A stretch of 64,000 nucleotides of DNA from assembly GCA_964648105.1 (NCBI GenBank), contig CAZYMH010000004.1, positions 6,083-70,082 of the forward strand. The letters are read 5' to 3'. Made by a program: the position numbers and the translations under genes. The notes beneath the pieces are model-generated. The model ran no database searches. It was given only the letters and a program-made list of their open reading frames with translations, and was not told the DNA's origin. Positions 13,514-58,042 of this stretch are shown in pieces. This DNA is from an uncultured Candidatus Saccharibacteria bacterium (GTDB lineage Bacteria > Patescibacteriota > Saccharimonadia > Saccharimonadales > 2-12-FULL-41-12). The first letter of the stretch is position 1; each line of letters begins with the position of its first letter.

Positions 13514-13598
13514 GCAGGGATAGTGAAGCGGTCAAACACGACTGACTGTAAATCAGTTGGCTCAGCCTTCGGGGGTTCGAATCCCTCTCCCTGCACCA
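13514..13598 (+). tRNA. tRNA-Tyr (anticodon GUA), long variable arm, CCA encoded
   Basis: GCAGGGA...UCCCUGC-A-CCA; anticodon arm ACUGA-CUGUAAA-UCAGU; variable arm UGGCUCAGCCUUCG. Confidence 0.85.
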
Positions 13599-13643
13599 AA
13601 ATAGAAGAAGTATGCCGCAATTTTAAGCGGCTTTTTATTTTGT
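13577..13643 (+). repeat. Direct repeat copy 1: 3' end of tRNA-Tyr plus its terminator
   Basis: 67 bp; intact terminator GCCGC-AATTTTAA-GCGGC-TTTTT; 61/67 identical to copy 2, which lies 190 bp downstream. Confidence 0.8.
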
Positions 13644-13766
13644 CAATAATTCGAACGACCGATGGAAAAAGCCTTCGGGGTGAAGAATGCCAGAGGCATT
13701 CTGCAAGGAAAGCTTCCGATGAAAACTTGTTTTCAGTCGTGAAGTTTCGGGCCTGCCAAAGGTAGG

Positions 13767-13833
13767 TCGAATCCCTCTCCCTGCACCAAGCTAGAAGAAG
13801 TATGTAGCAATTATATGCGGCTTTTTATTTTGT
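13767..13833 (+). repeat. Direct repeat copy 2: orphan tRNA-Tyr 3' end plus degraded terminator
   Basis: TCGAATCCCTCTCCCTGCACCA... repeated; terminator stem broken (GTAGC vs GCGGC); preceded by an 86-nt region that does not fold as a tRNA. Confidence 0.8.
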
Positions 13834-37915: not shown

Positions 37916-40120
37916 ATGAGTTTACTAGAAGCTGGTCAAAATTTGGTAGTTATATCTAATCGTCTGCCAATAAGCGTCTCAAAAGACGAAAACGGCAAAT
38001 TACAGTTCTCGAGTAGCAGTGGTGGTTTGGCAACCGCTATGTCGTCATTAGACATAAATAAAGCTAATTTTAAATGGATTGGCTGGCCTGGAATTGCCAG
38101 CGAAGATTTAACCTCTGACGACATACAGCAGATCGATACTGTGCTAGCTAAACATAATTTTTACCCAGTTTATCTTAATCAAACCCAAGTTGATAATTTT
38201 TATTCGGGTTATGCTAATGACACTATTTGGCCACTGTTTCATTACTTTCAATCATTCGTAAACAATAGCCCAAAATACTGGGAAGCCTACAAAGATGTTA
38301 ACGAAGCCTATGCTAAAGCGGTTATAACTAACATCGATGTTAACTCGTATGTTTGGATCCATGATTATCATCTGATGCTATTGCCTCAAAAATTACGAGC
38401 CTTGTTGCCGAGGCTAGCGATTGGTTTCTTCTTGCATATTCCGTTTCCGTCATACGAAATTATTCGCCAACTGCCTAATCGTCGAGAGATTTTGGAGGGT
38501 TTGATGGGCAGTGATTTGGTCGGTTTCCATATATATGATTATGTTCGACACTTCTTAAGTAGCAGCAAACGGATATTATCTAGTGAAGTACTTGGTTCTT
38601 CGATCAATAATTATGGGCGAAATATATCGGCCGACAGCTTTCCAATCGGAATTGATTACAAAAAATTTGAAGACACGGCAAATTCTAAAGCTGTAAGTAA
38701 ACGCTCCAAAGAAATCGGCAAAATCTACAGAAACCAAAAAATTATACTGTCAGTTGACCGATTAGATTATTCTAAAGGAATTTTGAAACGCCTCGAGGCA
38801 TTTGAATTATTCTTAAAAGAACACCCTCATCAACATGGCAAAGTCAGCTTGATCGTGATTGCCGTACCATCTCGAACCGATGTTGAGACATACCAACAAC
38901 TCCGTGATCAAGTCGAGCAAGCTGTCAGTCGAATTAATGGTCAATACGCCAATGTCGAGTGGAATCCGATTTCTTACCAGTTCAAGAATCTTCAGTTTGA
39001 AGAATTAGTGGCCTTATATCGAATTTCAGATATAGCTTTGGTGACACCAATTCGCGATGGCATGAACTTAGTTGCTAAAGAGTTCGTTGCTTGTCGCATA
39101 GATAATAATGGGGTGCTAATTTTGAGCGAAATGGCTGGAGCGATTGATGAACTTCATGAGTCAATCAAGGTAAACCCTAATGATATTCGGAGCATGGTCA
39201 CAGCCATCGAAAATGGTCTGTCAATGTCCGAAAAAGAACAAAAAGTTCGGATAAAGCTAATGAAACAACGTATTTCTGAGTATACAGTACAGAGGTGGGC
39301 CGAAGATTTTATTGAGCAACTTCGTAATATTAAACAAACTCAAGCCACCCAATATAGCAAAATATTAACCAAAAAAGACGAATTAAAACTGTACGAAGAT
39401 TACACTCGTTCCAAAAAACGGTTAATTTTGCTTGATTACGATGGAACACTGCGTGATTTTGTGTCAACCCAAAAAATTTATGATCCAGAACCATCTAATG
39501 AGCTAAAAAGTATATTGCGGAAACTTTCGAACGACCCCAAAAATACCGTATATATTATCAGTGGTCGGCCAGCTGACACCTTAGAAAAATGGTTTGGCAA
39601 ATACAAAGTTAACTTGGCTGGCGAGCATGGGGCCTCGGTAAAAGTCGACGGCAAGTGGCACTACAGCGAACATAATTTTGATGATAAACGTAAGAAAATT
39701 CTCGATTTGTTAACCAAATACACTCTGCGAACCCCTGGCTCTTATGTCGAAGATAAAAACTCCTCAATTGTTTGGCATTACCGAACTGTGCCAGAGCAGT
39801 TAGCCTTTGTTCGCCGCGAAGGACTAATGAATGAACTCAACCAGATATTAGTCGATACTCAGTTGGAAGCGTGTTTGGGAAGTAAAATAGTCGAGATCAA
39901 AACAAAAACTGTTGGTAAAGATATTTTGGTAGCCAATACAATCAAAAAGCTTAAACCTAGTTTAATCTTGGCGATAGGTGATGATTACACTGACGAAGAT
40001 ATGTTTAAAGTAATTGGTAAGGGTCAATACACTATCAAAGTCGGTCGCGATCAAACAGCCGCCAATTACCGAATTCGATCAGTACGACATGTCCACGAAC
40101 TGCTTAGAAAACTGATTTAA
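37916..40120 (+). CDS. Bifunctional trehalose-6-phosphate synthase / phosphatase (OtsA-OtsB fusion)
   Basis: 734 aa; GT20 N-domain ([15 protein letters not shown]) and HAD C-domain ([18 protein letters not shown]). Confidence 0.85.
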
Positions 40121-42402: not shown

Positions 42403-42444
42403 GTTTAATATCCCTTTTCATTATTTTTAATAATATTTTAACTA

Positions 42445-42453
42445 ATTCTACCA
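42445..42453 (-). promoter_or_regulatory. Candidate extended -10 promoter (TGGTAGAAT) dedicated to fusA
   Basis: Minus strand TGGTAGAAT about 45 nt upstream of the fusA GTG, in the AT-rich gap after the island. Confidence 0.35.
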
Positions 42454-42563
42454 CAAATCACCTTCAATTTAAAATTTAGAGATTTAGATTTTGCAATCTT
42501 GTTTTTTAAAATGCTATTAGGAGTTTGTTACTTTCTTAAATAATTAACTCGTCAGTTCATTAC

Positions 42564-42779
42564 TTAAGAAAGTGCCGGTGTTGTCATTGATGATAAATCA
42601 TCGATGAACGGAACCGGCGGTCCGTTGATAGAAGAGGTTGCGAGGACACTGAAATGTCCGTCAAGCTTCCTGCTCCTACGAGCCTGTAAAGCCATAAAAT
42701 GGCGAACATAGCTCAGTAAAACTTGGGCGAGAACTCGAAGTTCTCTAGCCGAAGTCGCGTGAGGTGTTAGAGGCACCAT
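42564..42779 (-). CDS. Hypothetical small protein (71 aa from the ATG)
   Basis: AAGGGAGAG SD upstream; ORF-track GTG at 42791 is too close to the SD; last gene of the island. Confidence 0.3.
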   Translation of the reverse strand: MVPLTPHATSARELRVLAQVLLSYVRHFMALQARRSRKLDGHFSVLATSSINGPPVPFIDDLSSMTTPALS

Positions 42780-42865
42780 CACTTTTCCCACTCTCCCTTA
42801 TTCCATAGGGCGACACTCACTGTAGCATCATGCTTAGTGACGTCGAATTTTTGTTGCATGTGGGG

Positions 42866-43729
42866 TCACGACCCGTCAGGCACCGAAAGATGCAGATGGT
42901 TGGCATGATTGCTCATGTAAAATGCCCCACATGGGAACTGGCTGTACTGACAGGCGTCATAAATGGTCGGGTTATCAATATCATCGATACCTGTGCCACC
43001 TCGGCCTGTGTGCAGTGAGATCAACTGCCGTGGATAAATCCTCGCTGCCCAAAGAGCCCGAATCGCTTCAGTCACTTTGTCATTGCGATGTTGCAGGTCA
43101 GATCCTACGCCGATCCGAAAACCACCAATTACCGAAATATCAGCCGCTAACCCAGCTGGGTGAGCAGAGATACCTCCTGTAGTGGTCGAAATCGAGTGAG
43201 AGCGAGCCAGACAGCTGAATTCGACATAAGGCTTACTTGCCCCACGTCTCTCTTGGTCGGCAGCGATAACCATCGCTTGCACCCAGATGTTAGGATGAAT
43301 CGATGTACCTCGACCAGGCCCACGGTCGGTGTACGGCCGAGCAACCTGATCAAGAAAATCTTGTCTTGTCCCCCAGCATGCTGCATCGGAGAACGTAACC
43401 CCACCAGAATCGACGTACTTCTGTTTGAGGATTCTGGCTAATCTTGTACTTTCCTGAGCATCATTGCCCCTAGACACTACTTCGAAGGTGGGGTCTTGCT
43501 CCTCGGTCACTTTAGCCACAAGAGGCATCGGCAACAATGAAGCTTTGACTGACTTTGGGTTGTCACCTGCCGAACCCCAAGTGGGTCCGAAAAGTGAGGC
43601 CGCCGAAACAGTCAATACTGCGGTTGTTACTACTCCTTTCAAAATAGCTGGTCGTTTACGGGCCGACTTTTTGGAGCCAGTCGGTTGTTTCTGACTGAAG
43701 GCCTTACTAACTTCGTCTTGTAACGACAT
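42866..43729 (-). CDS. Secreted LAS/M15 (VanY-like) zinc peptidase, putative peptidoglycan hydrolase
   Basis: 287 aa; signal/TM near residue 30; exact S-x-H-x-x-G-x-A-x-D motif (SAHPAGLAAD) and C-terminal H-x-H (NHLHLS). Confidence 0.65.
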   Translation of the reverse strand: MSLQDEVSKAFSQKQPTGSKKSARKRPAILKGVVTTAVLTVSAASLFGPTWGSAGDNPKSVKASLLPMPLVAKVTEEQDPTFEVVSRGNDAQESTRLARILKQKYVDSGGVTFSDAACWGTRQDFLDQVARPYTDRGPGRGTSIHPNIWVQAMVIAADQERRGASKPYVEFSCLARSHSISTTTGGISAHPAGLAADISVIGGFRIGVGSDLQHRNDKVTEAIRALWAARIYPRQLISLHTGRGGTGIDDIDNPTIYDACQYSQFPCGAFYMSNHANHLHLSVPDGS

Positions 43730-44128
43730 CTAGTCACCACCGCGACGAAGTTGTTGGCCTGCCCACTGCCAGATAGTCTGGCTTTCGCCTGACCTCTGAG
43801 CGTTTGAAGTGGTCATTTCTTCGTTAGAGTCCATCTTTTCTCTGGCCCCACGGATACCGTCAATAAGAGCGGCGAGGCCAGAGATAACTTCGGCGGAAGA
43901 AGCTTGGCCGTTACGACTTTTGGTCGTCGCTCCAGTCAGCTTCTCGCCGTAGAACGTCAAGCACTGCCCTGCAGTTTCCAAGACCTCCAGCAACTCGACA
44001 AAAATCATGTCGCTGGCGACCAGGATGTCGGCGTCTTTGGTTGACAGCCCACACTGGTCTTCCAAAGACGCTCTTCGCTCACTCTTTGACATCTGAGTGA
44101 GCATTTGCAAATCTACGCGGTCGGACAT
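43730..44128 (-). CDS. Hypothetical helical cytoplasmic protein (132 aa)
   Basis: The ATG at 44128 has a strong AGGAGGAGGT SD; ORF-track GTG at 44176 is less likely. Confidence 0.45.
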   Translation of the reverse strand: MSDRVDLQMLTQMSKSERRASLEDQCGLSTKDADILVASDMIFVELLEVLETAGQCLTFYGEKLTGATTKSRNGQASSAEVISGLAALIDGIRGAREKMDSNEEMTTSNAQRSGESQTIWQWAGQQLRRGGD

Positions 44129-44200
44129 ACCTCCTCCTACACTAGAGTGGGTGACACCACAAACTTCAGATATCACCCTGATTGGACAACTTGTAGTTTA

Positions 44201-46018
44201 TCAAAGCTTGAATCGATCCGTCGAGCTGACGGTCGAATTCTGGCTTTTTGGCGACTTGAGCTGACTACTCTTGCTGGCGAAGCCCAGGATACCGTAAACA
44301 GCGAAAACGAGTTGCTGTCTCATAATCCAGGCCAAAACCAGCATGCCGAGCAATGCCAGGTACTCCCACTTCAGCTCGAGAGCTGACGAATCTTGAACCG
44401 AATCGTCAACACCGAGATGTGAGTAGCGACGCGACTTCTCACGGTTGTACTCGTCACGCACCTTGGAAGTACAAGACGCGAAGTTCTGCTCGGTCGAAAC
44501 TTTGCAAGACTTGGCAGTTGCCAGAGCCACCAATGACGCAGGCCGCTGAACGAGCGGGTAAAGACCCAGAACGTTCATGTTGGCATAACAATCAGAGCTT
44601 TCGCCCTTACAAACTCGCTTAGCCAGCTTGGCCTGCTGGTGGTTACCTGCCATTACGCTACTCGCGAACTGCTTGGCAGGAGCAGTAAGCTCCTTCTTGC
44701 CCAGCTTGGCTACATAAGTAGCCTGCGACCAACTGGCCTGCTGCCTGATGGCCTTGACATACAAGCCGTACAAAGCCGCAGGAGTAGTCTTCTGGTCGTG
44801 CGTGAACCGACTGTTCTTCTCGGGCAATCGGTCATGCATCTTATCCCGCCAGCTGTCGAACAACGAGCTTGCCGTAAGGCAAACTGCTTCATTGTTCTTA
44901 TTGCTCTGGGGATTGCACTTTGCAAATGCAGGCCCATAGACCTTGACTGTCTGGTTAAACCAACGGTCTTGGTCCTTAAGTCGTTCTGCTGCAAGCTTCA
45001 GCTCAATATGTGAGATGAAAAAGTGCGACAGACGACTGTTGGTACGACCATCGGCGTAGCGTTCGGCAGTAGCCTTCAGCTTGTTCAGCTTCGGGTAGCC
45101 GTTTGGCACGCCTTTGACATCCTTGTCGATGATCACATCCAGCCGCCGCTGAGTCTCGAGCAGCGGGTTCTGACGCAGGAACGCTAGCATATACTGCCTA
45201 GCAATGTTCCTGCGGCTAGCGGGTGAGCTTTTGCTCATCAGATCTGCTGTTGCACCGCGGACCTTACGAGCTTCGGCAAAACAACCTTTCCAGCCGAACT
45301 CACGCCGATGTTCCCAGCAGAGTTCCGCAAGGAACGCCTGCTTCTCGCCAGTCCGTGCCAACACGCGGTCAGCCCGAGCTAGTCTGGCGGGAGCCATCAA
45401 AATGTTCTTGAAGACAACTTCCAGTCTGCTCATCCGACCTTGGGACGAACCAACCTTACGGCAACTCGTGACACCCTTACGGATGACCACAAATTGGCCA
45501 TTGCGAATCCTGACGTACTTTTCGCCGCGGTTTCCCGTGACGATCGTGCCAGAGATGTTCGGTCCAACTTTGCCCGTCCGACTGGTGTCAAATGTGTTCG
45601 GTCCCGAATGAGTCCAAACGTAACCTGACAGAGCCGTGCAGCTGACACGATTTCCCTTCTGACCCATCGACATCGCCACAAGCTGGTTGACCTGCGATGT
45701 TGATGTCGTCGGGTAGTACTCTGCTTCTACCACAGGGGTAGCTTGCTTAGCCGTCGTCTGGGCTACTCTCCGAGGAGAAGTGTAGCTAGTCGTCGGCAAC
45801 GGCACGTAAGCAGAGGTTCGCGGCGTTTGCACAGGCGGTGTCGGCGATGGCACATGGGCGTCCGAGGCCAGCTGGATATTCAACCCCTTGGGGGTGTTTC
45901 CATCTGCCCGCTCGACGGCCACGTAGTCAGCGTAGCTGTCTTGCCCAACTGCGGTCATCGGTGCCAGCAGAGCTGACACTGCGATGACTCCAAAGAGCCA
46001 TTTGGTTCGGTTGTGCAT
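44201..46018 (-). CDS. Large secreted orphan (605 aa) with C-terminal TM anchor
   Basis: Signal peptide ...LLAPMTAVGQD, Pro/Thr-rich linker, many Cys, hydrophobic WEYLALLGMLVLAWI near the C-terminus. Confidence 0.55.
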   Translation of the reverse strand: MHNRTKWLFGVIAVSALLAPMTAVGQDSYADYVAVERADGNTPKGLNIQLASDAHVPSPTPPVQTPRTSAYVPLPTTSYTSPRRVAQTTAKQATPVVEAEYYPTTSTSQVNQLVAMSMGQKGNRVSCTALSGYVWTHSGPNTFDTSRTGKVGPNISGTIVTGNRGEKYVRIRNGQFVVIRKGVTSCRKVGSSQGRMSRLEVVFKNILMAPARLARADRVLARTGEKQAFLAELCWEHRREFGWKGCFAEARKVRGATADLMSKSSPASRRNIARQYMLAFLRQNPLLETQRRLDVIIDKDVKGVPNGYPKLNKLKATAERYADGRTNSRLSHFFISHIELKLAAERLKDQDRWFNQTVKVYGPAFAKCNPQSNKNNEAVCLTASSLFDSWRDKMHDRLPEKNSRFTHDQKTTPAALYGLYVKAIRQQASWSQATYVAKLGKKELTAPAKQFASSVMAGNHQQAKLAKRVCKGESSDCYANMNVLGLYPLVQRPASLVALATAKSCKVSTEQNFASCTSKVRDEYNREKSRRYSHLGVDDSVQDSSALELKWEYLALLGMLVLAWIMRQQLVFAVYGILGFASKSSQLKSPKSQNSTVSSTDRFKL

Positions 46019-46030
46019 GATATCTCCATT

Positions 46031-46747
46031 TTAGGAGTCTTTGACAGGGATAAACTTGATTTGGGTTGACCCAATGCCCAGCATGACTAGTCCCAGAATG
46101 AATACTGCAGTCCACGAAAATTCCGTAGACTCGTTGCTCGCCCGGGACTGATTCTTCATGCCATCCTTGAGAGGATAGCCTACAACAATCGGAGCTTCCT
46201 CAACTACCTCAGAGGATTTTCCAGGTTGAGTAAATAGCCCTCGACTAGGGTCACCACCCAACTCTGAGTAATAATCTGAGACATTACCGACCCAATGGCT
46301 GTTAAGTCCGCCTGGATCGTTAGATGCTCCAACAGGACACCATTTGGCACCGACTTCGGCTACTGACTGTCGGGTCCGATAGTTCTCACCCAATAGTCTT
46401 GCCGCCGCTCGGATGCCATGTTCCCATGAAGGACCAAGCGTCCATCCAGGACCAATCCCCCATGCGTTATGCTTGGAGATGTTTTGAGCATCTCCTGTGG
46501 TGCCAAAATGACTTTCAGCACCAGAAATAGCTACCAGTAACCGTGGGTCAACGCCATACTCATTTCCCCATCGGACAAAGTCTTTGCCGTGTCCAACAAG
46601 TGGTGAATTTGACACTTTCCCTTCGATATACTGATCGATTCTTTCAGCAAGGCCATTGCTGGATGTTGCAGCCACTGGCACCATCATGCCTCCGAGGAGG
46701 ACTATTATGGCCGCCAGTAGGCACTTCATCTTGCTAAAATACACCAT
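46031..46747 (-). CDS. SLT/lysozyme-like peptidoglycan glycosidase (VirB1-like role?) with C-terminal TM
   Basis: 238 aa; signal peptide; YGVDPRLLVAISGAESHFGT...HNAWGIG resembles the lytic transglycosylase E-S catalytic block; AAGGAGGTGA SD. Confidence 0.5.
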   Translation of the reverse strand: MVYFSKMKCLLAAIIVLLGGMMVPVAATSSNGLAERIDQYIEGKVSNSPLVGHGKDFVRWGNEYGVDPRLLVAISGAESHFGTTGDAQNISKHNAWGIGPGWTLGPSWEHGIRAAARLLGENYRTRQSVAEVGAKWCPVGASNDPGGLNSHWVGNVSDYYSELGGDPSRGLFTQPGKSSEVVEEAPIVVGYPLKDGMKNQSRASNESTEFSWTAVFILGLVMLGIGSTQIKFIPVKDS

Positions 46748-46788
46748 TCACCTCCTTAGGGAGTGAAAGTTGTCTTAGTCGGCGTAAG

Positions 46789-46977
46789 TTACCTCTTTGA
46801 CCACAGCTTGGTGAATGCCAGCAGCACCATTGCTACGACCAATAAGGTAACGAACAGTATAAGATGGGCCAATACAGTTATCGCTATGCCGATGGCACAG
46901 ACGCTTGCGATGGCCCCTACCGCCAGTTGCCTAACACCTTGCGGTGCAGGCACAGGACGATGATGATTACCAGCCAT
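46789..46977 (-). CDS. Small 2-TM membrane protein (62 aa)
   Basis: The ATG at 46977 overlaps the upstream gene stop (ATGGCTGGTAA); two hydrophobic helices. Confidence 0.4.
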   Translation of the reverse strand: MAGNHHRPVPAPQGVRQLAVGAIASVCAIGIAITVLAHLILFVTLLVVAMVLLAFTKLWSKR

Positions 46978-48028
46978 TGCCAATTACCACCTTGTCTGTC
47001 GTGGTCGAAGTCGGAACGCTTTTGAGCTTCAGCCCATCGACGTAACTGACCTCAATCCGAACATCAAAACCCTTTGCTCTCAAGTCCTCGATCTGCTGCT
47101 TGTTAGCAGCTTTGATCAATTTCTCGATTTGTGGACGGGTGTTGTCCTGAGCCTGCTGCAATGCTGACCGCCCGCCAAACGACTTATCATCGCTAGGGGT
47201 GGTAGCTAACTTATAGGCACGGTCAAGAGCCAGCGATTGTGCTGAGTTGGCTTTGCCGTCATCGGGGCCAGCGATTAAGCTAGCCATCCGATACAGGATA
47301 CCGCCTCCAGAACTGCCATGAAAATGCGTGGCTTTCTTACCACACCTCTCCCAGGCTGCTCCGAAGTCGTCGGCCATGACACTATCAGACAGATGGTACT
47401 GCTGCCCCTCAATGTAGAGAGATGCGTACCGCCTGATGATGTTGGGCCTCGGAACTTGAACCGAAATCACGTAGACTGGCTTTTTGCCAGGCACAGTCGG
47501 TCCATATTCACGATCACCCTTGATGCTTTGTTCGATGTACCACGACAGGCTGTCGATTCCGACAGGGAACCTGCCGAGGGCATCGAGCTTGATCTTGCTC
47601 GAGTTGAACAAAAAACCGAGCAGGAACTTCTTGGGGATATCGATTTCCCCGCCATTTACTACATTTGGCACGCAGAAAACGATGTCGCTAGTAATGTAAG
47701 TGTCCTGGGGAGACACAAACACAACTGGTGGTCCTGTGGACTCCAGTTTATGGGCGAAAATGCTTTCTAGCCGATTGATTACAACCCATGACAGGCTGAA
47801 CACGACCAGAACCACTGCGATAAGAGCCGAAGCTCTGACCCATGGGTGGTACTTCTGCAATGTGATGTTATCTCTCTTGCCGATGCGATGCATCAACCAG
47901 AGAAAGCCGATCAACCCGATTACGGATATCCCGACTGGAATCATCAGTAACCATAGTGGCTGATCGAAGTCGATCTTCAGTGGACCAAGCTGTATCAAAA
48001 CAGCTGGTTGGCCAAAGAAAGGCGACAT
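46967..48028 (-). CDS. Membrane-anchored orphan (353 aa)
   Basis: AGGAGGTGA SD; two N-terminal TM helices followed by a soluble domain of about 260 aa. Confidence 0.55.
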   Translation of the reverse strand: MSPFFGQPAVLIQLGPLKIDFDQPLWLLMIPVGISVIGLIGFLWLMHRIGKRDNITLQKYHPWVRASALIAVVLVVFSLSWVVINRLESIFAHKLESTGPPVVFVSPQDTYITSDIVFCVPNVVNGGEIDIPKKFLLGFLFNSSKIKLDALGRFPVGIDSLSWYIEQSIKGDREYGPTVPGKKPVYVISVQVPRPNIIRRYASLYIEGQQYHLSDSVMADDFGAAWERCGKKATHFHGSSGGGILYRMASLIAGPDDGKANSAQSLALDRAYKLATTPSDDKSFGGRSALQQAQDNTRPQIEKLIKAANKQQIEDLRAKGFDVRIEVSYVDGLKLKSVPTSTTTDKVVIGNGW

Positions 48029-48426
48029 TTTCTCTCACCTCCTATTCATCAATGTTTGTATTTGTTATAGTACACTGCTACTTTATACTCAAAATTTATA
48101 TAATTTGACTCTAAAACAGATAGATGGACAAATCTTGATTCAAATACAAAGCAGCAGCGTACTACAAAATTTACGCTTATTTATAATTGTTAAATAGCGG
48201 ATTTACGGAGAATAAGTCCACCTATCGTTCAAGATGAGCAGATTCATCGAACGCAAATCATATAATATAATTACTATACTTTAGGTGTTTTGTCAATGTT
48301 TATAACATATAATTGGCATACTTACTTTTAAGTATTATGGTTATACAAAGCATCATAAATTGAACATTTCGTTGTTGTAAATTAAGTAATATACAACTAT
48401 ATTTGCGAGGAGTAAAATATATTATT

Positions 48427-49353
48427 ATGACAGAGCATGAGGGCAATAATGAAAGGCCGCGAAATGATGATTATAGCGACCATAAAAATGACGGCTTTTT
48501 GTCACCACCTTACAGCGATGTACATCGTCGACCGAGTGTGATAATTGAAGGATCCGATGATAATTTTTATGAGCGAAACAAACGCACTTTATTAATCGGA
48601 GCTTCAGCTGTAATAGGCATTTTGGCAGTCGGTGGGATTATCAAGTCATGTACCGATGACGAGCCAAAACCCAAAACTCCATCCAAAACAGAATCTAGTC
48701 TATCGGGGCGGACATTCTCTGAACTACTTAATGCCAATTCTAAGAATAACTCTGGTCAGAGGGTAGTTTTGGCTAATTTTAATATCGCTCGAGTTTTAAA
48801 CGATGATCTAGCAGCTGGCAATAACAGCGTCGAGACATTAAGTGTCAGTACCACCGCTTGCACTACTGGCAGTGGCTCAACTGTTCGACCAATCAAATCA
48901 AATGTCTCGACGATTATTTTTCGGAATTCCGAGAGCCGTAATCCATTTTTACCTGTTATTCTAAACGATGAACATATATCAGCCACCGAAAAATACCGAA
49001 CTAACTTCCGCGAGGCAACCAAAGATAGTGGTTATATGCACCGCGACCCAACCCGAATGTCGAAGAAAAATATCAAATTCATTAAATCAGCCGTTAACGA
49101 CCAACTGTGTCCTACAGGCACAACAGCCATTGACCCGCAAATATCGTCTAGACGCTTACTCATCGACGATGCCGCCTTCGAAGGAAGGCAGCTCTACGAC
49201 ACCAATAATCGTAACCCGTTAAGAGGTGTAAGTAACTTCTTTGAACGTATCGGCAGTGGTGGGATTATCTTAATTTTGGTAGGTTTAGGGGCAGTGGCAT
49301 TACTATCTGACGGGGATTTTCGTAGTCGCTTTGGCCGCCGAAAAAACGACTAA
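48427..49353 (+). CDS. Orphan membrane protein, the only plus-strand gene in the island
   Basis: ORF opens at TTG 48403; ATG at 48427 follows a GAGGAG SD; TM helices near residues 55-75 and at the C-terminus. Confidence 0.5.
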   Translation: MTEHEGNNERPRNDDYSDHKNDGFLSPPYSDVHRRPSVIIEGSDDNFYERNKRTLLIGASAVIGILAVGGIIKSCTDDEPKPKTPSKTESSLSGRTFSELLNANSKNNSGQRVVLANFNIARVLNDDLAAGNNSVETLSVSTTACTTGSGSTVRPIKSNVSTIIFRNSESRNPFLPVILNDEHISATEKYRTNFREATKDSGYMHRDPTRMSKKNIKFIKSAVNDQLCPTGTTAIDPQISSRRLLIDDAAFEGRQLYDTNNRNPLRGVSNFFERIGSGGIILILVGLGAVALLSDGDFRSRFGRRKND

Positions 49354-49823
49354 ACAGCTTGATTTTTGCTTTCATCCTTTTGGAATCATCAGCATAAATA
49401 CACATTTATGTAGCAATAGGCACTAAATAAATCAGGAGATCTCGGAAGCGAGACCAGCATCTGAAATATTTAGAGCCAAGGTTTGGCGAGGAAATTCTAG
49501 CTATGAAACCAGATATTCAACTCTTAAAGCCAATTTTGGCCAAAGTCGAGTGTTAATCGCTGCTCTTTTAGGGAGCTAGTTTTTCACACTCGACTTTAAG
49601 CCGGACGCTGAACTTAAGTCGCCATAGAGGTGGACAAAAGTTCCTTTTTGATGGGCGAATTCGCATATCTTTGGTCTGGCTCGACAGTTGGTGGTATATA
49701 TCAAAAATATTCCAACTGGAACTCTAGACGAAGACAGGAACTCTAGCCTGTATGGTTGGTTTTCGTTTGTGTCTTGTGATTCCTTTCTGTTTTAGATTGG
49801 CCCGAGCAGAAGTAGGCAACATC

Positions 49824-50942
49824 TTAACCACCCACTCCAGGCTGAACAGTGACATGCACATGGTCATAGTGACCTTCGGTCACACCGTAACCATGGGTAT
49901 ACGGTCGCCAACCTGTTCCTAATTGACAAGCGGCTGAATTGCCCTCGTTAAGACGAGTAACATTCCAGATTTTACCTTGCCAAATAAGATACCTAACTCC
50001 TACTTTGCTAGCGTTACTGGCAAGGAAACAAGCTATTTGCCAACCGAGAGCTTGCTCTGCCTTTGACGGAGAAATACCAATGCCATCGCTAATCGTGATA
50101 TCGAGTGCGAGGCCTAATGTATGATCCTGAGGTGTACCTGCAGGTCGAACACTATAACCACCAATTTCACGAATACACGGTGAAGTGTGAAGCTTCTCAC
50201 ATCCCCAGTTGGCAAAAACAAATCTTTGCAGGTTCTCGGCCCTTGGCACTAGTCCTGTTTTGGGATTTCGAGGTCCTTCGCCTGGATCTGTTAATGTGCC
50301 AGATACAGCGATATCTGCACAACCCATGTCTGTAACTACGCCATTGTCATAGCGTTCCAATACGCTTTTGGCGTTCTGGATGCGTTTTGGATACGAGGCT
50401 GTGTCACCTGACACTTCGTAAATTTTCTCAAACACCACTGTGGCTTCATCAATCGTGTTTGATCGCCGAACTGCAACAAGAGCCGATTTCCAGCCACCGA
50501 AGAGTTCGGACTTCATGAAATCGAGCTGCAACTCGATATCCGTCCATGGTTTACCCTGATAATCATGTGCTTTCAGGGCAGTTTGTCGACTTCCAAGCCA
50601 CTGAGCAATACCAACTGCTCCTGAGGTAGGATTTGGGTTGTCGGTTTTCAGAGGGTCTCCACCACTCTCATGGATGAAATTACCAACAATTGCGGCCGCC
50701 TGAAAGGGCTTGAGATCAAACTCAGGCTGCATAAGATAGTTGTATGTCTTCTGGGTATTATTATCGCCAGTAACTGCTGTGGCACATCCACCAGCCGACA
50801 TAGTGCTACTGCCGATCATTAAGACAAACATAACTATCGATACCACACCTACTGACATCAGAATGACTGGAAAACCAATCACTCCAATTAGCCACCCCAC
50901 TATGCCTGCTTTTAGTGCTTCACTTCCATTTTTATGGGACAT
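49824..50942 (-). CDS. Membrane-anchored bifunctional cell-wall hydrolase: phage-tail-lysozyme-like domain plus LAS metallopeptidase-like domain
   Basis: 372 aa; AAAIVGNFIHESGG...GAVGIAQWLGSR...QLDFMKSEL (lysozyme family); C-terminal HTLGLALD (H-x6-D) and HYDHVHV (H-x-H). Confidence 0.7.
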   Translation of the reverse strand: MSHKNGSEALKAGIVGWLIGVIGFPVILMSVGVVSIVMFVLMIGSSTMSAGGCATAVTGDNNTQKTYNYLMQPEFDLKPFQAAAIVGNFIHESGGDPLKTDNPNPTSGAVGIAQWLGSRQTALKAHDYQGKPWTDIELQLDFMKSELFGGWKSALVAVRRSNTIDEATVVFEKIYEVSGDTASYPKRIQNAKSVLERYDNGVVTDMGCADIAVSGTLTDPGEGPRNPKTGLVPRAENLQRFVFANWGCEKLHTSPCIREIGGYSVRPAGTPQDHTLGLALDITISDGIGISPSKAEQALGWQIACFLASNASKVGVRYLIWQGKIWNVTRLNEGNSAACQLGTGWRPYTHGYGVTEGHYDHVHVTVQPGVGG

Positions 50943-50954
50943 GATATCTCAACC

Positions 50955-52307
50955 CTAGGAAGTTGACGCCAGTTCACTTGATGAAAGTCCGCTTTTGCCC
51001 TTAACGAGGTGGCTTGTTTCGAGCAGCGGAATCTCCCACGGCATGGCTACATATCGCACCTCGAGTGCGGGTATGTTGCCAGTAGTGAACTTATACAGAG
51101 CATGGCCTTGAGGAAGTTTTACAATCCTTTCAATTTCATTATCTGTATACCCAAACAGATGTGAACTAGCTTCAAGTTCAGCTCGGTTTTGCCGATAACT
51201 GATAACCAATGAGGTGTCACTGGCGATGTCTTCGATCTGAGATGTAGCAGATCGAATAAGGTTTTGCCAATGATGAACCACCATTCGGTTACCAAAACCT
51301 TTGCTCCGTCCGAGCTTATAGGCCCGCCTCACCGAACTGACAAATCCGCTGTATGCTGCAAGGTCCCACGATTCATCATGGATAACGTGATGAAACCTGT
51401 TATCTGAAGATGATTTTGCATTTTTTTCGAGAGTAAAGAAGTTGATGAGAGTGGTCATTACAACCGCTTTCTCGCCATCAAGTCCCTCACAGTCTAGAAC
51501 CAGCAACGGCACTGCATCAAAAAGCCCTGGCGTCGTTGGTTTGTGAAACATTCCAGCAAGATTACCTTTTTCAGATAGACGTTCGAGCGTCAATCTGAGA
51601 TTTGCACTAAGCTTGTTGATATCATCGATATTTCCGACACTCAAATCTTCGACTGTACTAGCAGAAGGGTTTCGGAGTTTTTCGATCAAGCTCGGCAAAG
51701 TCGGAATACCTATTATCCCAGGGGAATTGTGACATTCGATAATCGAGTTCCACAAGAGAGTATTCTCCAGTGGTGTAAGCCCCTGAGTGAAGTGTTTTCC
51801 TGCGGTTACAATCAATGCAGTCAGTAGCTCCAATTGAGCATCTAGTCCCATGACAGGGTCCAAAGGATTAATGAAGTACTGAGCATTGTCACTGAAGTTA
51901 AGGACTTTTGCACCGTCGATGTATCCCGCTAGCACACGGTACTCACCCTTTCGATCAGTGACCAGATAGTTGCGTGAAAAAAGCAAAGTATCACGCAAAA
52001 TTCTTATTTTTTCTCCAGATGACTTGCGATAGCCTGTTTGTCCAAAGACAATCGAGTTTAGCGAAAACGCCGTTTCAGGATCAGCCTGATGGGCGGTGTA
52101 CTCACAAAACTCAAAGTTACCCGCTATTCCACCGAGACCAGCAATACCCAGAGGTACGCCAATCAATTTTTGCCCAGTTTTAGGATTGATAAATCCGTGT
52201 TCCAGACACAGCGGATTGACAGGAGCTAGGTCTTCGGACATTTCACGAAAAGTCGGCAAAGTATCACCGCTAACAATTCGTGCAAGATGGCTTTTATCAA
52301 TAGCCAA
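50955..52307 (-). CDS. VirB4-type (AAA_10/DUF87-like) secretion ATPase domain, non-canonical Walker A
   Basis: 450 aa; TTG start after GGGAGGTGAGAAG; GQTGYRKS (P-loop with R in place of G), VTDRKGEY, VIHDESWDL (DExW Walker B), HHWQ. Confidence 0.6.
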   Translation of the reverse strand: MAIDKSHLARIVSGDTLPTFREMSEDLAPVNPLCLEHGFINPKTGQKLIGVPLGIAGLGGIAGNFEFCEYTAHQADPETAFSLNSIVFGQTGYRKSSGEKIRILRDTLLFSRNYLVTDRKGEYRVLAGYIDGAKVLNFSDNAQYFINPLDPVMGLDAQLELLTALIVTAGKHFTQGLTPLENTLLWNSIIECHNSPGIIGIPTLPSLIEKLRNPSASTVEDLSVGNIDDINKLSANLRLTLERLSEKGNLAGMFHKPTTPGLFDAVPLLVLDCEGLDGEKAVVMTTLINFFTLEKNAKSSSDNRFHHVIHDESWDLAAYSGFVSSVRRAYKLGRSKGFGNRMVVHHWQNLIRSATSQIEDIASDTSLVISYRQNRAELEASSHLFGYTDNEIERIVKLPQGHALYKFTTGNIPALEVRYVAMPWEIPLLETSHLVKGKSGLSSSELASTS

Positions 52308-52383
52308 TTCTTCTCACCTCCCTCGTTTTTAGGTTAAGAGGTCGATTTTATCTTTAGTTTATGTTGAGTAAACTTTGATAAAA

Positions 52384-53958
52384 TCATTTGAAAACTCCCT
52401 TGAAGTTCAAAGCTGCGAGGCCACGTCCAAGGGGCAACACAACAGATACACCTTCGTACTGCCTAAGCGTAAGACCTTGCACACTGCAGTTATTCCTAGC
52501 TGCGGTCGAGCGAAGAATCTCAGCATTGGCAGTAACTTCTTCGACGGAACTGCCTTGGAGTGAAACATACACTCTCATCCGAAGTGATTCAGAACGGCTC
52601 GATGCCAACCGAATGGTTTTTTGTTTCGCCAATTCTGCCTCACGTTGCAGATCTGCATCCACCGCTGAACCAGCTAGCTGCTTGTCGGCGATGATAGAGC
52701 TGGTCGTATTACGATTGAACCTCGAGATACGACTGGTCGATGACCGTGAAACTGGCTGATATACAGCAGTCACAGTCAAAGGAATTACTTTTGCAGACTG
52801 CCCTTCTTCATTACTGAGGTTCATCAACCACAAAAATTCTGTGGGCGTCAATCCGTACTCGGAGAGACTTTCGATGAAAAAGCTCATATGAACCGTTTCA
52901 CCGAGCCAGGCATGATTCGCTTCAAAACCGCAGACTGTCGGTAAACCGAGCTTTTCATCAATTTGCTTGTCAGATTGCTCGAGAATACCAGTCTTACGCA
53001 TCTCCCTAACCAAAGGCAGTTTTGAAACTTGATCTAGTAACAGACCGATGTCCATAACTGACTCATTGTAAGTGTGGGCATCAACTTGACTTATGCCAAA
53101 TGGATTGTTAGCCAGACTATCGGTCAGGCCTACTTCATCGGCAAGTTGACCAACGAGATTGTACAAAAACTCGCCAGTCGTAATTTTTGTCTTTTTGCGA
53201 GCGTGCCTAATTCGAGGATCATCTTTTTTGACAGTAAACCGTAGAGACACCACTCTCTCAGACGACAGTTCCATTATCTTTTGCTCGTAAGCATCGATAA
53301 ATTGGTGGACTTTGTCTGATTTATTATTCACTAGATCATTAACCTTAAGCATTGTTTCTCGTTCTGAACGAAGATTCAATGCTTCTCCTGGCAAAACTTG
53401 CACCTGCCAAGAGAATCGGTAAAATTCATGCTTCTTTACAACATCGAGCAACTTCGAAAATGCTTCTGTACGGTATTCTCGTTCTTGCGAGCTGGCATTG
53501 AAGAGAGAGCTGATTTTGACATACACAACGAACGTGTAAGTCTCATCTCGCTTATCATCATAAATGCACAGCTTCTGTCCCGAAATCTCAAATGGAACAA
53601 GTTCTAACTTGCCCAAACGCTTAGCGAATTCACGCTTAGCACGTTTAGTTAGTTCGAAGTTTTCTCCTCGTTCGACTCGTTTGTCGAAAAACTCATTCTG
53701 ACCGAGGTCAAAATTCGCCCTTCGATAGAGGATTGCGAGGAGCGGTTTGCCGTCTCTGGAAACTGGGACATAAACTAGCAGTCCCCAAAAAGCAGCTGCC
53801 AGAAACGTAATGCCTAGCCATATTCCAAATGGTACAATCTGCAAAAGCACCAAAAGGATTACAACCAGCACAACTGCAAAGATCGTGGAATGATCGAGCC
53901 TTAGCGACCCAACAATTCGAATTCCACGCTCTTTTTCAATCGGATGTCGCTCAGACAC
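52384..53958 (-). CDS. TM-hairpin protein with large cytoplasmic domain; candidate VirB3 / VirB4 N-terminal-domain equivalent
   Basis: 524 aa; GTG start after an identical GGGAGGTGAGAAG; two TM helices at residues about 25-65; sits directly upstream of the ATPase domain gene. Confidence 0.4.
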   Translation of the reverse strand: MSERHPIEKERGIRIVGSLRLDHSTIFAVVLVVILLVLLQIVPFGIWLGITFLAAAFWGLLVYVPVSRDGKPLLAILYRRANFDLGQNEFFDKRVERGENFELTKRAKREFAKRLGKLELVPFEISGQKLCIYDDKRDETYTFVVYVKISSLFNASSQEREYRTEAFSKLLDVVKKHEFYRFSWQVQVLPGEALNLRSERETMLKVNDLVNNKSDKVHQFIDAYEQKIMELSSERVVSLRFTVKKDDPRIRHARKKTKITTGEFLYNLVGQLADEVGLTDSLANNPFGISQVDAHTYNESVMDIGLLLDQVSKLPLVREMRKTGILEQSDKQIDEKLGLPTVCGFEANHAWLGETVHMSFFIESLSEYGLTPTEFLWLMNLSNEEGQSAKVIPLTVTAVYQPVSRSSTSRISRFNRNTTSSIIADKQLAGSAVDADLQREAELAKQKTIRLASSRSESLRMRVYVSLQGSSVEEVTANAEILRSTAARNNCSVQGLTLRQYEGVSVVLPLGRGLAALNFKGVFK

Positions 53959-54017
53959 TTCTCACCTCCCAACATTAGTTGAAGGCATCCATGCCTTTAC
54001 CCTTGAACGGTTAATCA

Positions 54018-55142
54018 TTAACTCGACCTGAACTTAGTGTAATAGGCACGAGCAATCACGGCTCGCTTGACTGGTTCAACCTTGAAATCAGCACCACTGA
54101 TTTTCTTGATTGCCCAAATACCGATGATCAAAGGCATCACAGTTGTGGCACATAGAATGATCATTGTGGTAAATGCATCATTGGCTTCTAATGTCATAGC
54201 TAGTCCCAACTGTAGTACAAACAGCAATATTGCAGGAAATGCGATCCAAGCTCCGATGGTCAAGAAGGCCTTTTTAGCCCTGTCCCATGATTCTTCGCCG
54301 ATGCTATGAGCTAACGCGAATAGAGCAGCAAGGATCAGTAATGGTATAAACATATAACGAAATACCATTACAAACAACGTTGCACCAGACAGTACTGTTC
54401 CAATTACAAAAATTGTGAACAGTACCGCTACTACGCCTAATTGTCCAGCAATAATTTGGTTGAGGTAGCCCTCAACGTTTTTCATAACATCGCCCAATTG
54501 AACTCCCATTACATCAGCGAGTTCAGGTACGAGTTTTTTGTCTACCAATGTCACCAGCCAAGAGGCTGCCGTCAGCATCATTCCTCCTGTGAGAGCAATA
54601 AACACTCCCATTTTGAAGAATGTGGAGAAGTGGATAGCAAGATCCGCTTCTTTTGCTCCTTTTACAAGCCGATACATAAAGGCTATGTACGCCCAAATGT
54701 AAGCAAGCCAAAGAATTTGCTGATAGGCCACAGAGAACCATGCAGCATTAAGGTTCGGTGATGTTGTTCGTGTGATGAACTTGATTTCCATCTTCAAGCC
54801 CCAAATTACTCCCATACCAAAGAATTTAGCTACTTCACGTAGCATTGGCTCAACGGTATGACTAACTACTTCATCTTTTATTTTCCCAATCGCCTTGCCA
54901 GGTATCTGTGACGGATTTGGCACACCCGGAATGGCACCAATTACATTATTGGCTCCAGCTATCGGATTAATGATCCCCCCACAGACGTTGGAGGCGGTTT
55001 GGTTTGGAATGACATCACAAGGTGTCGGAATCCCAAGGATATCTGCTCCAGCTTTGTCTGGTTTTGCCATTTGCCAGCTCATAAATCCGAACAAGCAAAC
55101 AAGCATCACCAAACTGCTAGAGAGCCAACGAGTTTTAGTCAT
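54018..55142 (-). CDS. Polytopic membrane protein, VirB6/TrbL-like
   Basis: 374 aa; signal-like N-terminus, periplasmic segment, then at least 6 TM helices; start overlaps the upstream stop. Confidence 0.45.
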   Translation of the reverse strand: MTKTRWLSSSLVMLVCLFGFMSWQMAKPDKAGADILGIPTPCDVIPNQTASNVCGGIINPIAGANNVIGAIPGVPNPSQIPGKAIGKIKDEVVSHTVEPMLREVAKFFGMGVIWGLKMEIKFITRTTSPNLNAAWFSVAYQQILWLAYIWAYIAFMYRLVKGAKEADLAIHFSTFFKMGVFIALTGGMMLTAASWLVTLVDKKLVPELADVMGVQLGDVMKNVEGYLNQIIAGQLGVVAVLFTIFVIGTVLSGATLFVMVFRYMFIPLLILAALFALAHSIGEESWDRAKKAFLTIGAWIAFPAILLFVLQLGLAMTLEANDAFTTMIILCATTVMPLIIGIWAIKKISGADFKVEPVKRAVIARAYYTKFRSS

Positions 55143-55854
55143 AGGTCTTGTACCTCTGATTCTCGAGGACTAGCTTGTACTTCGCCAGAATCTGAGTAAA
55201 ACTTTGGCCAGATTCTGTGAAGCTTGGTACTTCACCCTTTAGTGGACGAAGTTGCTTGTCATAACGCCACTTTCCATCTTGCCAAACCATTCTCAAGATC
55301 TGGATCGATGGAACATCCTGCTGAAAATAACGCTGATTTTTCTTGGTTATTACGGTTGTGATGCCGTAAACACCAACCACAGCACTTTTTCCTGCTTCAA
55401 AACTTTTGACTTTGTACTGAAGTGCTTGGAAGTCATACCTGCCTTTTTGCTGAAAATCAGCTAGAGACGAGTACCCTAAGCTTTTTGCCATTGCATCTCC
55501 TCCTACTGCAGGAACCTGCTTACCATCAGCTTCATAGCCAGAGTAAAGCTTACGAAGTTGACTGGCAGTTTCCTGAGTAGCAACTTCATCCACCTGATTA
55601 CGAAAGTCCGCTTCAGGTGAAAGAAAAGCCGATGTCAACACCGCCACCGTATTGCCAGCCGAACGACGTGCATCATCAACACTCGATGATGAAGGATCGA
55701 CAGGCGATGGTGGGTTACTGACAGTATTTCCACTCGCATCTTTGGTAATAGTTTGCGTTCGCGTAACCGTATGGTCAATATTCGCAAGCACAACTGCAAT
55801 TACCATCAATAAAGCGAATGGCACTACAAACCATCTCAGCTTTCTGAAATTCAT
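55135..55854 (-). CDS. Bitopic membrane protein, possible VirB8/TcpC-like scaffold
   Basis: 239 aa; single N-terminal TM, Ser/Pro linker, soluble domain of about 150 aa. Call rests on size, topology and context only. Confidence 0.3.
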   Translation of the reverse strand: MNFRKLRWFVVPFALLMVIAVVLANIDHTVTRTQTITKDASGNTVSNPPSPVDPSSSSVDDARRSAGNTVAVLTSAFLSPEADFRNQVDEVATQETASQLRKLYSGYEADGKQVPAVGGDAMAKSLGYSSLADFQQKGRYDFQALQYKVKSFEAGKSAVVGVYGITTVITKKNQRYFQQDVPSIQILRMVWQDGKWRYDKQLRPLKGEVPSFTESGQSFTQILAKYKLVLENQRYKTYD

Positions 55855-55917
55855 TTTTCTCTCCTATGGTTTAGTCGCCTAGGACAAAGATACCTAGGCG
55901 ACTGACACCAAATTGAC

Positions 55918-56241
55918 TCACGGCCTGAAAAGCTGGCTGAGTCGTGTCGTCCAACCCTGAAGGTCGGACAAAATGATTATGGCAACGATGGCTGCCACAA
56001 TCATGGCAATTGCTTGTCCCGAGCTTCGACCGTTACCGATCGCCGAAATCCACTTAAGCAAGCCAATTCCGACAAAGATCAGGGCAATGACGATGAAAAT
56101 CCAGACTGCCCATTGCACCCAGTTCTGCCCAATTGGTCCAAGCACAGGCGGTGCTTTGGGGTTGGTGTTAATTGCCAAGCTGGTAGCTGGCAGCACCAAA
56201 ATCATCACCAAACTGCTCAGCCACATTTTGAGGTTTCTCAT
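55918..56241 (-). CDS. VirB2/TrbC-like small membrane protein (pilin-like)
   Basis: 107 aa; signal peptide ...PATSLA, then two hydrophobic helices separated by a short loop; AAAGGAGGAG SD. Confidence 0.4.
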   Translation of the reverse strand: MRNLKMWLSSLVMILVLPATSLAINTNPKAPPVLGPIGQNWVQWAVWIFIVIALIFVGIGLLKWISAIGNGRSSGQAIAMIVAAIVAIIILSDLQGWTTRLSQLFRP

Positions 56242-56265
56242 GTCTCCTCCTTTTAGTGGAGATAC

Positions 56266-57738: not shown

Positions 57739-58042
57739 TTGCTCACCCCCTATAATATTTTTATTTTGTACCAGTTTGTTAAGGTGCGGGGTTCACCTTT
57801 GGCCAACGCCAAAGAGCCGAAGATTCCTCCGGTTTATAAGCTCCTTTCTCGCCATGAAGTTTATTAACCGAAAGAATGTATCATAAAACTGAGCCACACC
57901 TGTGACTACTAAAAGAGTACAATATTTTTTGAACTTCGTAAATATTGATTTTCGTATATATATTCCGTAGTATGAAACAAGTATTTTTACAATTTAAAAA
58001 ATAAGTTGCCTAAATATTTTAATTGTTAAAAATTAATGATTT

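Follow-up and report, generated by a model that had tools for sequence, protein, structure and literature searches.

Predicted cell-wall hydrolases at the tail of a type IV secretion gene cluster of Candidatus Saccharibacteria

Why would a single type IV secretion system (T4SS) of a Saccharibacterium be accompanied by four peptidoglycan-hydrolase domains, and whose cell wall would they cut? The question is raised by positions 42866–50942 of a 64-kb stretch of uncultured Candidatus Saccharibacteria DNA (the window, whose positions are used as coordinates throughout), where the initial annotation had described four such domains of three mechanistic classes and had read them as suggesting a cocktail aimed at the wall of a Gram-positive host. 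This interval encodes p372, p353, p238, p605, p148 and p287 on the minus strand and p316 on the plus strand (predicted proteins are named by their length in amino acids, and the loci or contigs compared with the window are given L-numbers). In our best explanation, to which we assign a probability of roughly 0.6 as a whole, the roles of p372 and of a second pair of hydrolases included, the interval forms the end of a chromosomal T4SS cluster of the Gram-positive (monoderm) type, joined to an adjacent block of envelope genes.

All the motifs quoted in the initial annotation, and the three open reading frames (ORFs) that carry them, were located on the minus strand at the positions it had named, and p287 (residues 28–47), p238 (residues 1–30, plus a C-terminal segment at residues 210–235) and p372 (residues 9–54) each possess a hydrophobic anchor, as it had also claimed. 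The family and structure searches that it had proposed supported both domains of p372 and the domain of p238, and gave no significant family or structure match for p287. Three of the four domains are thus confirmed and the fourth is probable; they belong to four families in only two superfamilies, two being lysozyme-like and two clan-MD zinc peptidases, rather than to three mechanistic classes. The main features are the following.

49824–50942, minus strand: p372, predicted membrane-anchored bifunctional wall hydrolase, its gene directly after the VirB4 ATPase gene
50352–50759, minus strand: Phage_lysozyme2 domain of p372 (residues 62–197; Pfam PF18013), with GNFIHESGG
49827–50246, minus strand: VldE-type clan-MD (LAS) zinc L,D-endopeptidase domain of p372 (residues 233–372; phmmer, PF26571, Foldseek)
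50700–50800: recombination breakpoint within p372, just past the membrane anchor (from DNA identity with L003)
50955–53958, minus strand: split VirB4, consisting of p524 (SCO6880/TrsD-like N-terminal part, 52384–53958) and p450 (ATPase part, 50955–52307)
46031–46747, minus strand: p238, signal peptide, lysozyme-like (GH73-like or 8yxk-type) domain and C-terminal anchor
46214–46645, minus strand: glycosidase domain of p238 (residues 35–178; PDB and profile matches), with candidate catalytic E78
42866–43729, minus strand: p287, N-terminal signal-anchor and probable divergent clan-MD zinc peptidase
42869–43390, minus strand: probable peptidase domain of p287 (residues ~114–287), with S188-x-H190-x2-G193-x-A-x-D197 and H275-x2-H278-x-H280

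A two-domain hydrolase directly after VirB4

The N-terminal domain of p372 matches Pfam PF18013 with an E-value (E) of 6.6 × 10−27 and 94.8 bits, well above the gathering cut-off of 28.2, over model positions 2–139 of 140, which bears out the phage-tail-lysozyme-like domain recognized earlier. The GNFIHESGG motif, with its Glu, is retained in the close homologues that carry a Phage_lysozyme2 domain, and the predicted structure of p372 also matches the tail lysozyme gp13 of phage phi29 (3csr/3csq) with a Foldseek E of 1.6 × 10−3.

The C-terminal domain, described previously as a second LAS-type domain (HTLGLALD...HYDHVHV), can be specified as VldE-type from matches in both sequence and fold, with the catalytic residues kept. 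It carries PF26571 'VldE' in the precomputed annotation (our local Pfam scan gave no PF26571 match for p372), and it matches PDB entry 9flh, the MT3 domain of VldE, by phmmer (E 4 × 10−6). Foldseek superimposed the p372 model, in which the core of this domain has a predicted local distance difference test score (pLDDT) of about 70–77, on 9flm, 9flk and 9flh with E of 1.1 × 10−4 to 5.5 × 10−4, a probability of 1.00 and target-normalised template modelling (TM) scores of 0.72–0.75, 9flh being identified as VldE from the Foldseek entry titles. VldE, a characterised zinc L,D-endopeptidase, belongs to clan MD and cleaves L-Ala-D-iGln, with H301, D308 and H375 as the Zn-1 ligands and R294 and H373 as catalytic residues (PMC11667670). 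The p372 residues R266, H274, D281, H361 and H363 align to R294, H301, D308, H373 and H375 of VldE, respectively, and all five are invariant in 11 homologues (alignment A3). Four cysteines of the same domain are likewise invariant in these homologues, and would fit an extracytoplasmic location.

The p372 gene directly follows the VirB4 ATPase gene in the window as well as in L002, L003, L065 and L066, and its homologues have the same architecture; among them the peptidase domain is constant, while the glycosidase is of the Phage_lysozyme2, the SLT_2 or a third lysozyme-like type. By tblastn, the N-terminal domain was found on 401 Gram-positive plasmids, 203 of which are predicted to be conjugative, and the one gene checked lies directly after VirB4. 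On Gram-positive plasmids, the gene in this position encodes a 'phage tail tip lysozyme' or an NlpC/P60 protein. Tape-measure families in PHROGs match both halves of p372, and no phage genes surround it in the T4SS operon.

Encoded in a T4SS operon next to virB4, membrane-anchored, and made up of a glycosidase and a peptidase domain, p372 has the three traits of a monoderm T4SS hydrolase. Since in monoderm T4SSs virB4 is normally followed directly by a hydrolase of two or three domains (PMC12102498), p372 is ordinary when taken alone. The premise of the initial annotation, that a single T4SS normally needs one VirB1-type enzyme, holds for Gram-negative systems only. Judged from its sequence, p372 is a predicted monoderm-type T4SS hydrolase that is unusual in its peptidase partner.

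VirB4 itself is encoded in two pieces. p524 matches the NCBIfam model SCO6880_fam (E 8.4 × 10−9) together with VirB4 N-terminal models, and p450 matches models of the VirB4-type ATPase, indicating that VirB4 is split into two genes; VirB4_plasma/conju_CD1110 is among the NCBIfam matches of the split protein. The plasmid relatives of p450 that were listed by genus all come from Actinobacteria (Streptomyces 41, Arthrobacter 6, Rhodococcus 4, and others), and a Pseudarthrobacter plasmid, the one fully annotated example, shows the order SCO6880-family protein, ATPase, coupling protein, with VirB4 split likewise. Actinobacteria are the host phylum of the cultured Saccharibacteria.

In the direction of transcription, p372 is preceded by the core genes p490, p107, p239, p374, p524 and p450 (from 56266–57738 down to 50955–52307). 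Among their products, p374 is a polytopic membrane protein that is VirB6-like by position, p107 is pilin-like with three hydrophobic segments, and p490 is a membrane protein with a weak ParA/MinD-like match. The core is syntenic with L065, L066 and L002, the last being an uncultured Candidatus Saccharibacteria metagenome-assembled genome and the single locus from a genome-collection scan with alignment A3. Patescibacteria T4SSs are homologous to the monoderm conjugation machinery, and a TrsD-like N-terminal VirB4 fragment is their commonest component (PMC12102498).

In the mechanism that we propose, p372 would be the system's own hydrolase, a monoderm counterpart of VirB1 held by its N-terminal hydrophobic segment with its catalytic domains presumably facing outside. 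The phage-tail-type lysozyme domain thus exposed would cut the glycan strands, and the VldE-type single-zinc peptidase, by analogy with VldE, would cut the stem peptide at L-Ala-D-iGlx. Acting together, the two domains could open a local hole in the peptidoglycan for the T4SS channel or pilus.

A sharp boundary in DNA identity runs through the p372 gene. Compared with L003, a 5.4-kb contig from another sample, the window is 99.5–100% identical from 54008 down to 50809, a segment that comprises p524, p450 and about the first 60 codons of p372, and identity then drops to 68–89% below about 50750. The synonymous divergence (dS) in p372 is 0.02 over codons 1–60 and about 1.1 over the whole gene, with a ratio of non-synonymous to synonymous divergence (dN/dS) of 0.06, and the amino-acid identity to L003 is 100% for p524 but only 77% for p316. 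Taken together, the drop in identity, the dS and dN/dS pattern and the divergence of p316 indicate that the catalytic ectodomains of p372 and the downstream DNA were replaced by recombination and are under purifying selection. An exchanged ectodomain would fit a variable, target-facing part of the protein, and is silent on whose wall is the target.

The separate proteins p238 and p287

The initial annotation had called p238 SLT-like, and a lysozyme-like glycosidase domain is indeed present, although not of the SLT family. As a single sequence, p238 matches the 'phage cell wall hydrolase' of PDB entry 8yxk over 144 residues (E 8 × 10−7); the profile of its family (A4, 23 sequences) matches the same entry with E 1.1 × 10−22, and also reaches the GH73 N-acetylglucosaminidases 5wqw, 7pj3 and 4q2w at E 1.6 × 10−4 to 2.9 × 10−4. 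Pfam Glucosaminidase (PF01832) gave 21.6 bits for p238, below the cut-off of 30.2; 15 of the 23 family members match this model at E ≤ 0.01 (best 1.6 × 10−6), and 10 of the 23 match SLT_2. E78, within AISGAES, is invariant in all 23 sequences and aligns with the Glu of 8yxk.

The assignment of p238 as an SLT lytic transglycosylase was rejected: SLT_2 gave 21.4 bits against 24.3, over 37 residues only, and SLT 12.8 against 21.3, and the lytic transglycosylases MltB and EmtA reached only E 0.3–0.8 in the PDB searches (EmtA about 0.3 with the family profile). On these comparisons, p238 is predicted to be a lysozyme-like glycosidase nearer to GH73 than to SLT. It holds this single domain between its signal peptide and its C-terminal anchor; in relatives the domain forms the N-terminal half of fusions with NlpC/P60, M23, VanY or M15_3. 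Of the 618 Gram-positive plasmids on which tblastn found it, 356 are predicted to be conjugative, and the order VirB4, then hydrolase, also occurs on Gram-positive plasmids with p238-like domains and with domains like the N-terminal one of p372.

For p287, an exact VanY/M15 signature had been claimed. The two motifs, SAHPAGLAAD and HLH, are present, but p287 gives no VanY or Peptidase_M15 match in Pfam (E ≤ 0.1) and lacks the E-x2-H motif. VanX and VanY are defined by S-x-H-x2-G-x-A-x-D and by a second motif, E-x2-H, that supplies the catalytic Glu and a zinc-binding His. In p287 the second motif reads H275-A-N-H278-L-H280 (H-A-D-H-I-H in the family consensus), lacking the Glu of VanY; the H-x-[DN]-H-x-H of the family is the form of the LAS H-x-H seen in VldE and in the C-terminal domain of p372. 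SAHPAGLAAD, at residues 188–197, is the only S.H..G.A.D in the six frames of the window. Mononucleotide-shuffled windows contain a mean of 0.02 matches and 98 of 200,000 shuffles of p287 carry the motif; judged from these sequence counts, a chance origin appears unlikely.

A word-indexed search of 5.8 billion proteins returned p287 itself only, and an exhaustive representative search gave four distant relatives (the repeat protein P0046 was excluded as an artefact of this search). A metagenome scan yielded 51 loci (L014–L064) with a p287-type module of about 110 residues, on contigs with a G+C content (GC) of 0.64–0.77. The consensus of the module in these loci is VSCLxSGHS...SAHxxGxAVDI...MSDHADHIHVG, and in the family as a whole, which has at least 56 members, S-x-H-x2-G-x-[AGT]-x-D and H-x2-H-x-H stand at a fixed spacing in all 56 sequences found. 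The proteins of the 51 loci are secreted, unannotated and up to about 930 residues long where complete, and two of the loci adjoin TadE/TadG-like pilus genes, as judged by eye from N-terminal sequences.

Could these motifs instead mark a different domain, with a metal-binding or structural role, so that p287 is not a peptidase and the locus has only three hydrolase domains? Such a view draws on the searches of Pfam (E ≤ 0.1), NCBIfam, PHROGs and PDB (phmmer), which gave no match for p287, and on those of PDB with the HMMER profiles of its family (A2, A5 and A6), which gave no significant match, A5 reaching VldE at E 0.4. An AlphaFold2 model from a five-sequence alignment was also poor (mean pLDDT 55), and its best Foldseek match (E 0.4) was to an unrelated fold, with VanXYc at ranks 3 and 11 and a non-significant E of about 1.

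What such a view leaves unexplained is the invariance of the motif pair and the C-terminal form shared with VldE and p372, together with the families to which the relatives point. When 22 members were scanned one by one against Pfam, 15 matched Peptidase_M15_4 (best 0.0042) and 13 matched Extensin-like_C (best 7 × 10−5), against one for M15_3 (best among relatives 0.0066), two for VanY (0.12) and at most one for any other family, the M15_4, M15_3 and Extensin-like_C matches all being sub-threshold. Moreover, hhalign aligned the p287 family to the M15_3-annotated C-terminal domain of P0066 with 80% and 71% probability (E 1.4 × 10−5 and 3.7 × 10−5), both motifs being in register, and brought the N-terminal half of the p287 domain into register with the VldE-type family (54% probability). 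We consider a non-peptidase p287 improbable, and predict with good confidence that the protein is a divergent clan-MD zinc peptidase.

P0066 also bears on how p238 and p287 may work. In this protein a p238-like N-terminal domain (46% identity) is fused to the M15_3-annotated domain, the best detectable relative of p287, and from this fusion p238 and p287 would probably act as a pair matching the two halves of such fused enzymes. In the proposed mechanism, the block p353-p238-p605-p148-p287 would thereby add a second, unfused pair to the locus, comprising the membrane-tethered, GH73-like p238 and the membrane-anchored p287 as a probable clan-MD peptidase, which may co-operate with the T4SS.

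One system or two, and whose wall

The other features of the cluster are listed here.

46967–48028, minus strand: p353, two-segment hydrophobic membrane protein encoded at the start of the higher-GC block (ORF, GC, topology)
44201–46018, minus strand: p605, secreted with a C-terminal anchor, conserved partner of p238 (ORF, hydrophobic segments)
43730–44176, minus strand: p148, small soluble protein whose gene abuts p287 (ORF; no family match)
42564–42791 and 46789–46983, minus strand: two small ORFs of 75 and 64 residues in gaps of the block (ORF list)
48403–49353, plus strand: p316, divergently encoded, fast-diverging membrane protein with two anchors (ORF, topology, comparison with L003)
54018–57738, minus strand: remaining T4SS core, p374, p239, p107 and p490, assigned by position and topology only

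Besides the failed matches of p287, several observations weigh against our reading of the interval. What ties p238 and p287 to the T4SS is adjacency only, since the GC of the p353–p287 block (0.50–0.55) is distinct from that of the T4SS core (0.44–0.47) and of the window (0.41), the orthologous T4SS loci L002, L065 and L066 do without the block and have a coupling-protein gene after the hydrolase in its place, and the p238–p605 core of L004 has no T4SS gene within its 15 kb, at which point the contig ends. The 64-kb window contains neither a coupling-protein gene nor a relaxase gene. In addition, the 44-residue hydrophobic stretch of p372 (residues 9–54) could form a hairpin instead of a single pass.

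The block might then be unrelated to the T4SS, being a separately acquired envelope module next to it by chance, which would consist of housekeeping autolysins for growth and division or be left over from a mobile element or phage. This would agree with the surroundings of the p238–p605 pair in L004 and of the p287 homologue in L006, both of which adjoin ribosomal or housekeeping genes, and with the high-GC relatives of p287, which are chromosomal secreted proteins near which no T4SS genes were found. However, the block (in L004) and the T4SS (in L002 and L065) occupy the same chromosomal junction in different genomes, the L004 contig ends before any T4SS beyond the block could show, and the p238 domain family is one typical of the hydrolases that conjugative plasmids encode; an unrelated block is therefore somewhat unlikely in our view. 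We retain the reading of a T4SS tail joined to the block, the two being units that can occur apart and that occupy, from genome to genome, the same chromosomal sites, as the GC, the absences and the shared junction of L004, L002 and L065 indicate.

A second alternative concerns the wall that is cut. The four domains might be a cocktail acting on the thick wall of a Gram-positive (actinobacterial) host at the contact site, and not on the epibiont's own wall. The T4SS-adjacent hydrolases of S. epibionticum are essential for epibiotic growth, which favours a host-directed role without proof. The diverged p372 ectodomain and downstream DNA, exchanged between strains with identical T4SS ATPase genes, would fit the matching of host walls, but the recombination pattern is equally explicable by a generally mobile region. 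The families of p238 and of the N-terminal p372 domain are represented as well in the tail lysins and tape-measure proteins of phages, which breach a foreign wall from outside; the presence of p287 relatives on high-GC soil contigs and the nearest named plasmid relative of p238, an actinomycetotal glucosaminidase-domain protein, would both fit acquisition from the host phylum.

Yet p372, p238 and p287 are all membrane-anchored on the producer, which limits their reach, and in Gram-positive conjugation the homologous enzymes are established as remodellers of the donor wall. The monoderm envelope of the Saccharibacteria themselves must also be crossed by the T4SS. No sequence feature separates a self from a foreign substrate, and the sequence cannot tell the cutting of the own wall from that of the host wall; we regard the exclusively host-directed cocktail as unlikely. 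Quite improbable is a more far-reaching proposal, in which the p372 ectodomains and the higher-GC block make up an exchangeable 'wall-breaching cassette' of two glycosidase and clan-MD sets, swapped after the anchor among near-identical strains, and in which the unannotated LAS family, found otherwise in high-GC soil bacteria, may come from the host phylum. If this were true, variation of the cassette would tune which host walls the epibiont can open.

With the T4SS tail joined to a separable block as the preferred reading, the compared loci give some further detail of both parts. L002 (11510–14134) and L065 (11748–14390) encode a T4 coupling protein of 874–880 residues, convergent and directly after the hydrolase, and p316 sits at the corresponding place in the window. 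Genes of the p238 and p605 types are adjacent in L004 and L005 as well. The L004 block lies directly after pseudouridine-synthase, holB and TPR genes, the junction at which L002 and L065 carry the T4SS. A 333-residue protein encoded at the corresponding place in L004 is weakly similar to p353 (E 0.0013 in a comparison with 10 sequences). Positions 8980–15005 of L004 hold a block syntenic to p353-p238-p605-p148 that ends in an SLT_2-type anchored protein of 295 residues instead of p287, and the hydrolase that closes the block seems to be exchangeable. In L006, the p287 homologue stands after a small gene for 167 residues and before the S10 operon; the 167-residue product has no detectable sequence similarity to p148.

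No family match was found for p148 or p605, nor any PDB match for p605. The search for flanking direct or inverted repeats around 42.3–58.1 kb gave only short matches at chance level, and a prophage origin of the block was set aside, no phage structural or integrase matches being present in the locus. The 75- and 64-residue gap ORFs gave no family matches either; L001 has called genes of 71 and 62 residues at the matching positions. In L002, the T4SS is followed by a tRNA-Tyr/Thr/Thr cluster and then a GH15 gene, and the TPR-to-GH15 junction of the window (12953–13832) contains only tRNAs and an L33-like gene.

Known systems and the setting of the locus

A stack of four wall-hydrolase domains has been described before in Candidatus Southlakia epibionticum ML1. 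There SEML1_0006 has two lysozyme-like domains (PF01832 and PF18013) and a cysteine peptidase domain (Wang et al. 2023, Cell, PMC10633639, Tables S1/S2), and SEML1_0007 has a Hedgehog/DD-peptidase domain; both adjoin the VirB4-like SEML1_0008 and were scored essential, essentiality being scored by transposon sequencing (Tn-seq) for epibiotic growth (PMC10633639). The peptidase and lysozyme homologues beside virB4 of S. epibionticum may replace VirB1 (PMC12102498). The window is thus like ML1 in having hydrolase genes next to virB4 and four wall-hydrolase domains, including PF18013, GH73-type and clan-MD ones.

In ML1, however, three domains are fused in a 643-residue protein with the cysteine peptidase, the clan-MD domain ends a 1113-residue protein, VirB4 is unsplit and a pilin array is present. 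The window, by comparison, has a lysozyme fused to a VldE-type peptidase, no cysteine peptidase and a VirB4 in two parts; its second glycosidase and second peptidase are each a small anchored protein of their own, encoded in a block of distinct GC. From the SEML1_0006/0007 tables, four wall-hydrolase domains beside a Saccharibacteria virB4 are therefore already documented. The window presents another recipe of this kind, with two modest novelties, a p287 family that lacks annotation and a hydrolase allele that recombines.

The hydrolases of Gram-positive conjugation systems, such as pIP501 TraG, pCF10 PrgK, MPF-FATA TrsG and CD419 (named in PMC12102498), likewise combine a glycosidase and a peptidase in a membrane-anchored protein directly after VirB4. 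They pair the glycosidase with CHAP, NlpC/P60 or M23, whereas p372 pairs it with a VldE-type clan-MD domain, and the window differs from these systems in lacking a coupling protein and a relaxase. CwlT of ICEBs1 is a further bifunctional hydrolase of Gram-positive conjugation. With VldE (Spr1875) of Streptococcus pneumoniae (PDB 9flh–9fln), the C-terminal domain of p372 has its fold in common, as well as zinc ligands, the catalytic Arg and His residues and the extended H-x-D-H-x-H motif; VldE, however, is a LysM-anchored septal stress-response autolysin with a four-zinc latent state and not a secretion component (PMC11667670). The phi29 gp13 protein (3csq/3csr) and tape-measure lysins resemble p372 in joining a lysozyme-like domain and a LAS metallopeptidase within one wall-penetrating protein, although the peptidase of gp13 is M23 and not clan MD, and p372 is membrane-anchored and encoded in a T4SS operon.

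Few genes have been shown to be essential for the epibiotic lifestyle of Saccharibacteria, and those of the T4SS and its neighbouring hydrolases belong to them; the locus bears on how Saccharibacteria and other Patescibacteria breach or reshape cell walls where epibiont and host meet. It adds a second recipe of hydrolase domains (a phage-tail lysozyme with a VldE-type peptidase), a split counterpart of the fused glycosidase–M15 enzymes, a clan-MD-like family, so far without annotation, which counts over 50 members from metagenomes and could be curated, and evidence for the exchange of catalytic ectodomains between strains. p372, p238 and p287 are concrete candidates for zymography and host-range work.

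The whole 15-kb cluster is flanked by rpsG/rpsL/rpoC and fusA, and the T4SS cluster (42403–58042) interrupts the rpsL-rpsG-fusA operon, which is usually contiguous. Elsewhere in the window, a 734-residue ORF (37916–40120) has by eye the look of a fused trehalose-6-phosphate synthase/phosphatase, and a 651-residue ORF (10997–12952) is 50% identical to the Pfam-confirmed GH15 protein of L002, whose gene adjoins GH57 and GT4 genes. These two ORFs suggest a trehalose or glycogen-type carbohydrate metabolism.

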